Shown piece by piece: positions 1 through 814 of a stretch of 814 bases of DNA; position 1 is the stretch's first letter, and the number at the start of each line of letters is the position of its first letter. Source of the stretch: a phage; the sequence record KC755108.1; one strand, 5' to 3'. The notes beneath the pieces were generated by a model. That model was not told the origin of the DNA, ran no database searches, and saw only the letters and a program-made list of their open reading frames with translations. The position numbers and the translations under genes are program-made.

Positions 1-25
1 TATATTGTTTAATCTTCTTTATCAT
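1..25 (-). other. Window-start segment where the gp23 translation diverges (probable 1-nt deletion near 23-25, and about 13 nt at 1-13 not recognisable as gp23)
   Basis: The core frame reads ...ALLFQM IKKIKQY. gp23 as I recall it continues LLFQ-IDKEAVEIARQ. The coding strand cag atg ata aag aag matches cag atT gat aaa gaa g (Q I D K E) if one T is restored, but the remaining ...attaaacaatata gives D-stop in that frame and does not resemble the expected continuation. Confidence 0.4.
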
Positions 26-727
26 CTGGAACAGTAAAGCTTTGAAGCTTTCACCAGCCCAACGAGCACCACGGATATCAATCGGGTCCTGGAAGTCAAA
101 CACACCAGCTTTAGCGCCAACGGTGTTGGTCATACCAGATTTACCAACCTGTGCGGAGTAGTTAATCCAATCGATAACTTCGCGGTTGATTTCCAGCATA
201 ATTTCGGTAGCCAGAATACCACTCAATTCGGCATCAGCATCCATACCGTGAACAGCGCGGAGGTCCTGTGCCAGTTCGATGGAGTAGCTTGCTTTCAGCT
301 GACGGGATTTAGCTTCGATAACTTGTTTGTCGATGCGGAAGCCCATTTCGTTCCACGGGTTATCAGAGGAACCGTTAAAACCTTCTTGCAGTTCGGCGAT
401 GGAGGTAGCCATACCTTCAGCGATTTCTGCCAGCTGACCAGCTTCGAGCAGTTTGGTAACTTCAGCGTCAAGTTTAGCAGCATCAGTAGCACCAGCATCA
501 ACGGTTACAGCTTCAACAGCCTGGTAGTGTGCGGAACCGGTTGCTTCGAAGAAGTGAGAATAAATTTTACCAACTTCCAGAACTTTGCTTGCAGCCAGTG
601 CTTCAAAAGTCTGAGCAGCGCCCTGACCAGAGAACATAGCGTTCGGAGCATACATCGGATGGAAAGCTTCTTTAGCACCAGCAGCGACAGGGTCTTTACC
701 GTATACTGCACGCAGTGCAAATACCTG
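2..727 (-). CDS. 23: Major capsid protein, T4-type (gp23 family), internal fragment; open at the window start (no stop codon in window), 5' side interrupted by a frame break at about 727-729
   Basis: Hand translation of the minus strand in the frame whose codons occupy + positions 3k+2..3k+4 gives no stop from 727 down to 2. Read N to C it starts QVFALRAVYGKDPVAAGAKEAFHPMYAPNAMFSGQGAAQTFEALAASKVLEVGKIYSHFFEATGSAHYQAVEAVTVDAGATDAAKLDAEVTKLLEAGQLAEIAEGMATSIAELQEGFNGSSDNPWNEMGFRIDKQVIEAKSRQLKASYSIELAQDLRAVHGMDADAELSGILATEIMLEINREVIDWINYSAQVGKSGMTNTVGAKAGVFDFQDPIDIRGARWAGESFKALLFQM... Long blocks match T4 gp23 as I recall it from memory (not a database search). Codon usage is that of a highly expressed gene (GCT, GGT, CGT, CTG, AAA, GAA preferred). 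Confidence 0.92.
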
Positions 728-729
728 GG
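727..729 (-). other. Apparent single-nucleotide insertion (extra G in a GGG run on +; extra C on the coding strand) breaking the gp23 reading frame
   Basis: The coding strand reads ccg act ggc C cag gta ttt. PTG is in one frame and QVF in the next, with one surplus base between them. Removing one base from the run restores a continuous ...NNPTGQVFALRA... matching gp23. Confidence 0.7.
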
Positions 730-806
730 CCAGTCGGGTTGTTCAGAGGCTGTACGCCACAAATATCAAACGCAATCAGATGCGGGATAGCACGCCGCAC
801 AACCCC
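729..806 (-). CDS. 23: 5'-proximal segment of the same gp23-family capsid gene, in a different reading frame from the core (frame shifted by one nt at about 727-729)
   Basis: Minus-strand codons occupying + positions 3k..3k+2 translate, N to C from 806 down to 729, as GVVRRAIPHLIAFDICGVQPLNNPTG. This matches the gp23 region immediately upstream of QVFALRAVYGKDP (T4, as I recall: MVRRAIPNLIAFDICGVQPMNSPTG). In the core frame the same bases read through to TGA at 743-745. An in-frame TAG at 807-809 ends this segment on its upstream side. Confidence 0.8.
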
Positions 807-809
807 CTA
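803..809 (-). other. Second apparent single-nucleotide insertion with an in-frame TAG (807-809) in the upstream gp23 segment
   Basis: The coding strand reads tg tta tag ggg gtt gtg cgg cgt gct. Deleting the A at +808 gives gtt atg ggg gtt gtg (VMGVV; T4 has VMGMV as I recall). Deleting one G from the 5-nt G run (+803..807) gives gtt ata ggg gtt gtg (VIGVV). Either way one extra base is present. Confidence 0.55.
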
Positions 810-814
810 TAACA

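Follow-up and report, generated by a model that had tools for sequence, protein, structure and literature searches.

We are highly confident that the odd sequence at positions 1–25 of the window (the whole 814-base stretch of phage DNA analysed here; coordinates are those of the + strand) represents the unreadable first calls of a one-direction Sanger read from a PCR-amplified capsid gene, and thus an artefact rather than a biological breakpoint. The anomaly at the window start is not a genomic feature. The original prediction, which was made from the letters of the window, had named three options (a low-quality read start, a chimeric or adaptor junction, and a real breakpoint such as a truncation or the edge of an inserted element) and did not choose between them. 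The primer geometry and the distribution of errors favor the first of these, and the evidence set out below speaks against the other two.

The record would have arisen as follows. The window would be a single-pass Sanger read, kept in the direction in which it was read, with the reverse primer CAP8 as its starting point and a Mzia1/CAP8 gene 23 PCR product (∼845 bp) of a T4-type (Gaprivervirus) coliphage as its template. Positions 1–25 would then be the first calls past the sequencing primer, where unresolved peaks may have led to bases being miscalled or dropped: about 21 true bases would have been called as 13 meaningless ones, and shortly afterwards one A of an AA pair would have gone missing. 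After this the read would be clean for ∼700 bases, decay past + 727, and finally pass through the complement of Mzia1 and off the template (Table 1).

Table 1. Segments of the window distinguished in this analysis, with the evidence used to place each of them
Feature	Positions	Strand	Basis
Uninterpretable first base calls, TATATTGTTTAAT	1–13	+	Alignments, primer mapping, junction searches
First gp23-matching bases, with a frame-shifting single-base deletion (one A of + strand AA, at 24/25)	14–25	+	Alignments
Clean gp23 coding sequence	26–726	-	Alignment with seven relatives
Extra G in a G run (GGG vs. GG; extra C on the coding strand), second frameshift	727–729	+	Alignments, frames
Copy of primer Mzia1, TGTTATIGGTATGGTICGICGTGCTAT	787–814	-	Primer sequence (PMC4229321), mapping

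The gp23 fragment and its relatives

The minus-strand product of the window is an internal fragment of the T4-type major capsid protein gp23. The gene had been correctly identified from the start, as both the translations and the alignments with Gaprivervirus gp23 genes confirm. A megablast search of 50,697 phage records matched 987 of them, and the best matches belong to Gaprivervirus, specifically the JS98/SP18 group (P896, 97.9%; phage 212, 97.8%; PSD2001, 97.6%), with vB_EcoM_VR7 (HM563683) at 94.8% identity. The top matches all span minus-strand bases 2–801 (+ 14–813) and fall inside a gene annotated as major capsid or major head.

The window was aligned once with three and once with seven Gaprivervirus gp23 genes, and the Escherichia phages P896, 212, and PSD2001 are its closest relatives. 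Over + 24–726 (703 bases), not a single difference is private to the window when it is compared with the seven relatives; DNA identity in this core is 96.3%–98.7%, and the reading frame is unbroken. The clean core (+ 26–726) is an ordinary Gaprivervirus gp23 fragment. What sets the window apart from these genes is limited to two frameshifts and the terminal 13-nt mismatch, all of them at the ends of the read, along with the primer-derived bases at + 787–814.

Some variation within the core deserves mention in its own right. The minus-strand codon at + 365–367 is TCT (Ser) in some of these phages and CAG (Gln) in others, a change of the whole codon in the context ...NGS[S/Q]DNPW. The Ser codon is common to the window, 212, PSD2001, and P479, and is not found in P896, RZ, SP18, or DK-13; this is a real polymorphism, not an error. 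In addition, differences relative to RZ and SP18 cluster at + ∼405–515 (alignment columns 300–410; sequence ...VDAGATDAAKLDAEVTKLLEAGQLAEI), where the window is identical to P896, although P896 diverges from it elsewhere. This pattern suggests that variation in Gaprivervirus capsid genes is mosaic. Outside the window, related phages have, between g23 and g24, a conserved ORF of 282 nt that runs on the other strand and is annotated as a hypothetical protein (2835–3116 in related locus L001, and at the same place in L002–L005 and L007).

Primer geometry and the distribution of errors

Both ends of the window can be placed relative to the primers Mzia1 (5'-TGTTATIGGTATGGTICGICGTGCTAT-3') and CAP8 (5'-TGAAGTTACCTTCACCACGACCGG-3'), the sequences of which are given in PMC4229321. 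The minus strand of the window opens with TGTTATAGGGGGTTGTGCGGCGTGCTAT, and its base 1 is exactly base 1 of Mzia1, so that the read stops at the 5' base of the primer. At this base the window carries the T specified by Mzia1, where all seven relatives have A. At inosine positions 16 and 19 of the primer it has G and G, whereas the genomic base is T at both positions in 7/7 relatives; G is what is read there because a copied inosine pairs with C. The third inosine (position 7) lies inside a miscalled stretch, and the genomic base is G in any case, so it is uninformative. Given the Mzia1 bases at this end, the last 28 positions are primer-derived, and the read must have run off the end of the PCR product.

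At the other end, the CAP8 site is found in all seven relatives with one mismatch, and it ends exactly 21 nt past + 14, the final window base to align, and so a short way ahead of the point at which the read becomes legible. Sanger data are notoriously unreliable over roughly the first two dozen calls that follow the sequencing primer, and the place of CAP8 in the relatives therefore puts + 1–25 within this zone. Lengths can be reconciled as well. With an amplicon of 845 bp in the relatives, 821 bases remain once CAP8 is subtracted (845 − 24). The 814 bases of the window comprise 801 aligned bases (800 true ones, plus a net indel of +1) and 13 that do not align and stand for 21. Mzia1 and CAP8 reportedly come originally from Tetart et al. 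2001.

A published protocol provides a close parallel. The products of PCR with Mzia1 and CAP8 were sequenced directly (BigDye) from CAP8 alone, and the E. coli T4-like phage studied was 95% similar to vB_EcoM-VR7, HM563683 (PMC4229321). The window resembles such a CAP8-sequenced amplicon in its Mzia1 far end with the inosines read as G, in the CAP8 site located 21 nt beyond its start in the relatives, in length (821 nt expected past the primer vs. 814 seen), and in its errors at either extreme, which make it look like a read from one direction. The 94.8% identity of the window to VR7 also agrees with the published 95%, and the window is probably the record of that coliphage (GenBank KC755108), but its source may be another study that made use of the same primers. 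CAP8 was presumably the sequencing primer of this read, and the errors would have arisen in base calling.

The far end of the window, near the 5' side of gp23, is no less degraded, and in a like manner. At + 727–729, the coding strand has GGCCCAG where the seven relatives have GGCCAG, and after this insertion the frame reads ...PLNNPTGPGICTACSIR and then a stop, as compared with ...PLNNPTGQVFALRAVYGKD in the relatives. The extra G is a late-read error, an artefact of the same class as that at the read start. Alignments with the relatives place three further mismatches, which we consider to be miscalls, and one inserted base at + 801–808. Overall, in the seven-relative alignment the differences private to the window are found only in + 1–23 and + 727–814; thus, errors occupy the first tens of bases and those beyond ∼700, and the middle is clean. 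There are six non-primer error events over the 801 aligned bases, and the chance that all of them would miss the core is ∼(98/801)^6, or ∼3e-6, assuming that such events are placed at random over the aligned bases.

It is important to note that the frameshifts at + 24/25 and + 727–729 would inactivate an essential capsid gene, and the phage evidently grew. The record is probably single-direction rather than assembled from reads in both directions, because the errors in + 727–814 persist, in a region where a second read, started at Mzia1, would have been clean. The original prediction did not mention the degraded far end, the Mzia1 terminus, or the CAP8 site that lies 21 nt past position 1 in the relatives. 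Taken together, these observations explain the geometry of the window without any need to extend the sequence, which had been the check originally proposed.

The first 25 positions

The minus-strand translation ends with ...GESFKALLFQMIKKIKQY; its final residues are FQMIKKIKQY, where the relatives have FQIDKEAAEIARQTGRG. The proposal that one T is missing near + 23–25 is borne out by the alignment with seven relatives: one T is gone from coding-strand ATTGAT, and the + strand reads ATCA-TCTGG instead of ATCAATCTGG at + 24/25. Restoring this T yields I-D-K-E-D-stop, again as anticipated. The divergence from gp23 is therefore genuine as a description of the record, although the expected continuation requires a minor correction: the closest relatives of the window have IDKEAAEIARQTGRGAGNF, not the IDKEAVE of T4.

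Beyond GATAAAGAAG, the window has 13 nt (TATATTGTTTAAT; coding strand ATTAAACAATATA) that, as had been noted, do not match gp23. At their place, 7/7 relatives carry an invariant stretch of 21 nt, CCGCTGAAATCGCTCGTCAGA, followed by CCGGTCGTGG; these 21 nt (TCTGACGAGCGATTTCAGCGG) sit between the CAP8 site and CTTCTTTATCA. The junction in the window is thus TATATTGTTTAATCTTCTTTATCATCTGG, compared with the normal ...GATAAAGAAGCCGCTGAAATCGCTCGTCAGACCGG across the same region. The G+C content of the 13-mer is 8%, vs. 57% for the true 21-mer, and the longest common subsequence of the two is 8, where shuffled 13-mers give a mean of 8.1; the 13-mer is thus no closer to the 21-mer than its shuffled versions are. 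The 23-mer that spans the junction had no match in viral, genome, or metagenome contigs, and the single-base-deleted (T-deleted) sequence had none in viral contigs, whereas the intact, normal junction is present in viral contigs.

The 13 nt could in principle have been joined on in vitro, from a second PCR template or from a cloning vector or sequencing adaptor, and contaminating foreign bases are common at the extreme ends of deposited reads. The geometry is wrong for this explanation. Vector would adjoin CAP8 in a cloned amplicon, and the divergence in the window instead lies 21 nt inside the CAP8 site. The comparison with vector and adaptor sequences that had been suggested earlier gave no match: the 13-mer shares no word of 6 or more bases with a list of common vector flanks, universal primers, and Illumina/454 adaptors, which is weak evidence given that the list is far smaller than the full UniVec database. 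A related 170-kb phage genome, TH41, contains no exact copy of the 13-mer, and its single-mismatch matches number 2, with 1.1 expected. We consider a vector, adaptor, or chimeric junction very unlikely. We also rejected a chimera formed with DNA from elsewhere in the phage genome, as TH41 lacks an exact copy of the 13-mer and matches to it with one or two mismatches are at the level of chance.

A different possibility is that gp23 is truly truncated, rearranged, or interrupted in this phage, for example by a homing-endonuclease gene or an intron, and that + 1–13 is the edge of foreign DNA. The AT-richness of the 13 nt makes them unlike gp23, mobile elements of T-even phages are AT-rich, and 13 nt are too few for this origin to be excluded directly. 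Several lines of evidence nevertheless speak against it. Just 21 nt separate the divergence from the CAP8 site, and Mzia1 forms the far end; with ends at Mzia1 and in the CAP8 region, the template was an amplicon of ordinary size, in which an insert has no room. The divergence is preceded, at a distance of 10 nt, by a frameshifting deletion, the opposite end has a frameshift unrelated to this one, and two independent frameshifts would inactivate an essential gene. A mobile element, intron, or truncation edge should be reproducible in independent sequence of high quality and have an identifiable foreign side. As described above, the junction is missing from all three sequence collections and the T-deleted form from viral contigs, the 13-mer is missing from TH41 (where near-matches are at the level of chance), and the 21 nt that it replaces are invariant in 7/7 relatives. 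A real breakpoint, including the edge of an inserted element, is thus extremely unlikely.

It is also conceivable that the window start is a genuinely divergent segment that remains in frame. If + 1 adjoins the CAP8 site, 13 residues (IDKEAAEIARQ...) would be replaced by 10 (MIKKIKQY...) with no stop; the net change of −9 nt (−1 and −8) is divisible by three, and nothing closes the frame before the window edge (FQMIKKIKQY-TGRG). However, a fit of the frame is by itself a one-in-three coincidence, and the DNA replaced is invariant in relatives that are otherwise 96%–99% identical. The change would also involve a fall in G+C from 57% to 8%, and neither the junction nor the T-deleted sequence occurs elsewhere in the contigs searched (viral, genome, and metagenome for the former, viral for the latter). 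Moreover, the opposite end of the read carries a frameshift that is plainly an error. Sanger calls do not begin at the first base past the primer, and it is therefore unlikely that + 1 adjoins CAP8. We assign next to no probability to this explanation.

Consequences for use of the sequence

With an unreadable read start as the explanation for + 1–25, the canonical sequence expected in this phage is ...CTGTTCCAGATTGATAAAGAAGCCGCTGAAATCGCTCGTCAGACCGGTCGTGG..., and the GGCCCAG of the other frameshift should read GGCCAG. It is highly improbable that gp23 is truly altered here, whether through the replacement of IDKEAAEIARQ by MIKKIKQY in frame directly before the conserved TGRG or through an AT-rich insertion of which only the edge is seen. 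If it were, the change would be unusual for a stretch that is among the most conserved in the T4-type capsid protein.

The significance of the finding is one of data hygiene only. Positions 1–25 and 727–814 should be trimmed or masked before the sequence is used for phylogeny or translation, given that these parts hold miscalled bases, both artificial frameshifts, and the 28 bases that derive from the primer and, like the inosine-derived G's among them, are not phage sequence.
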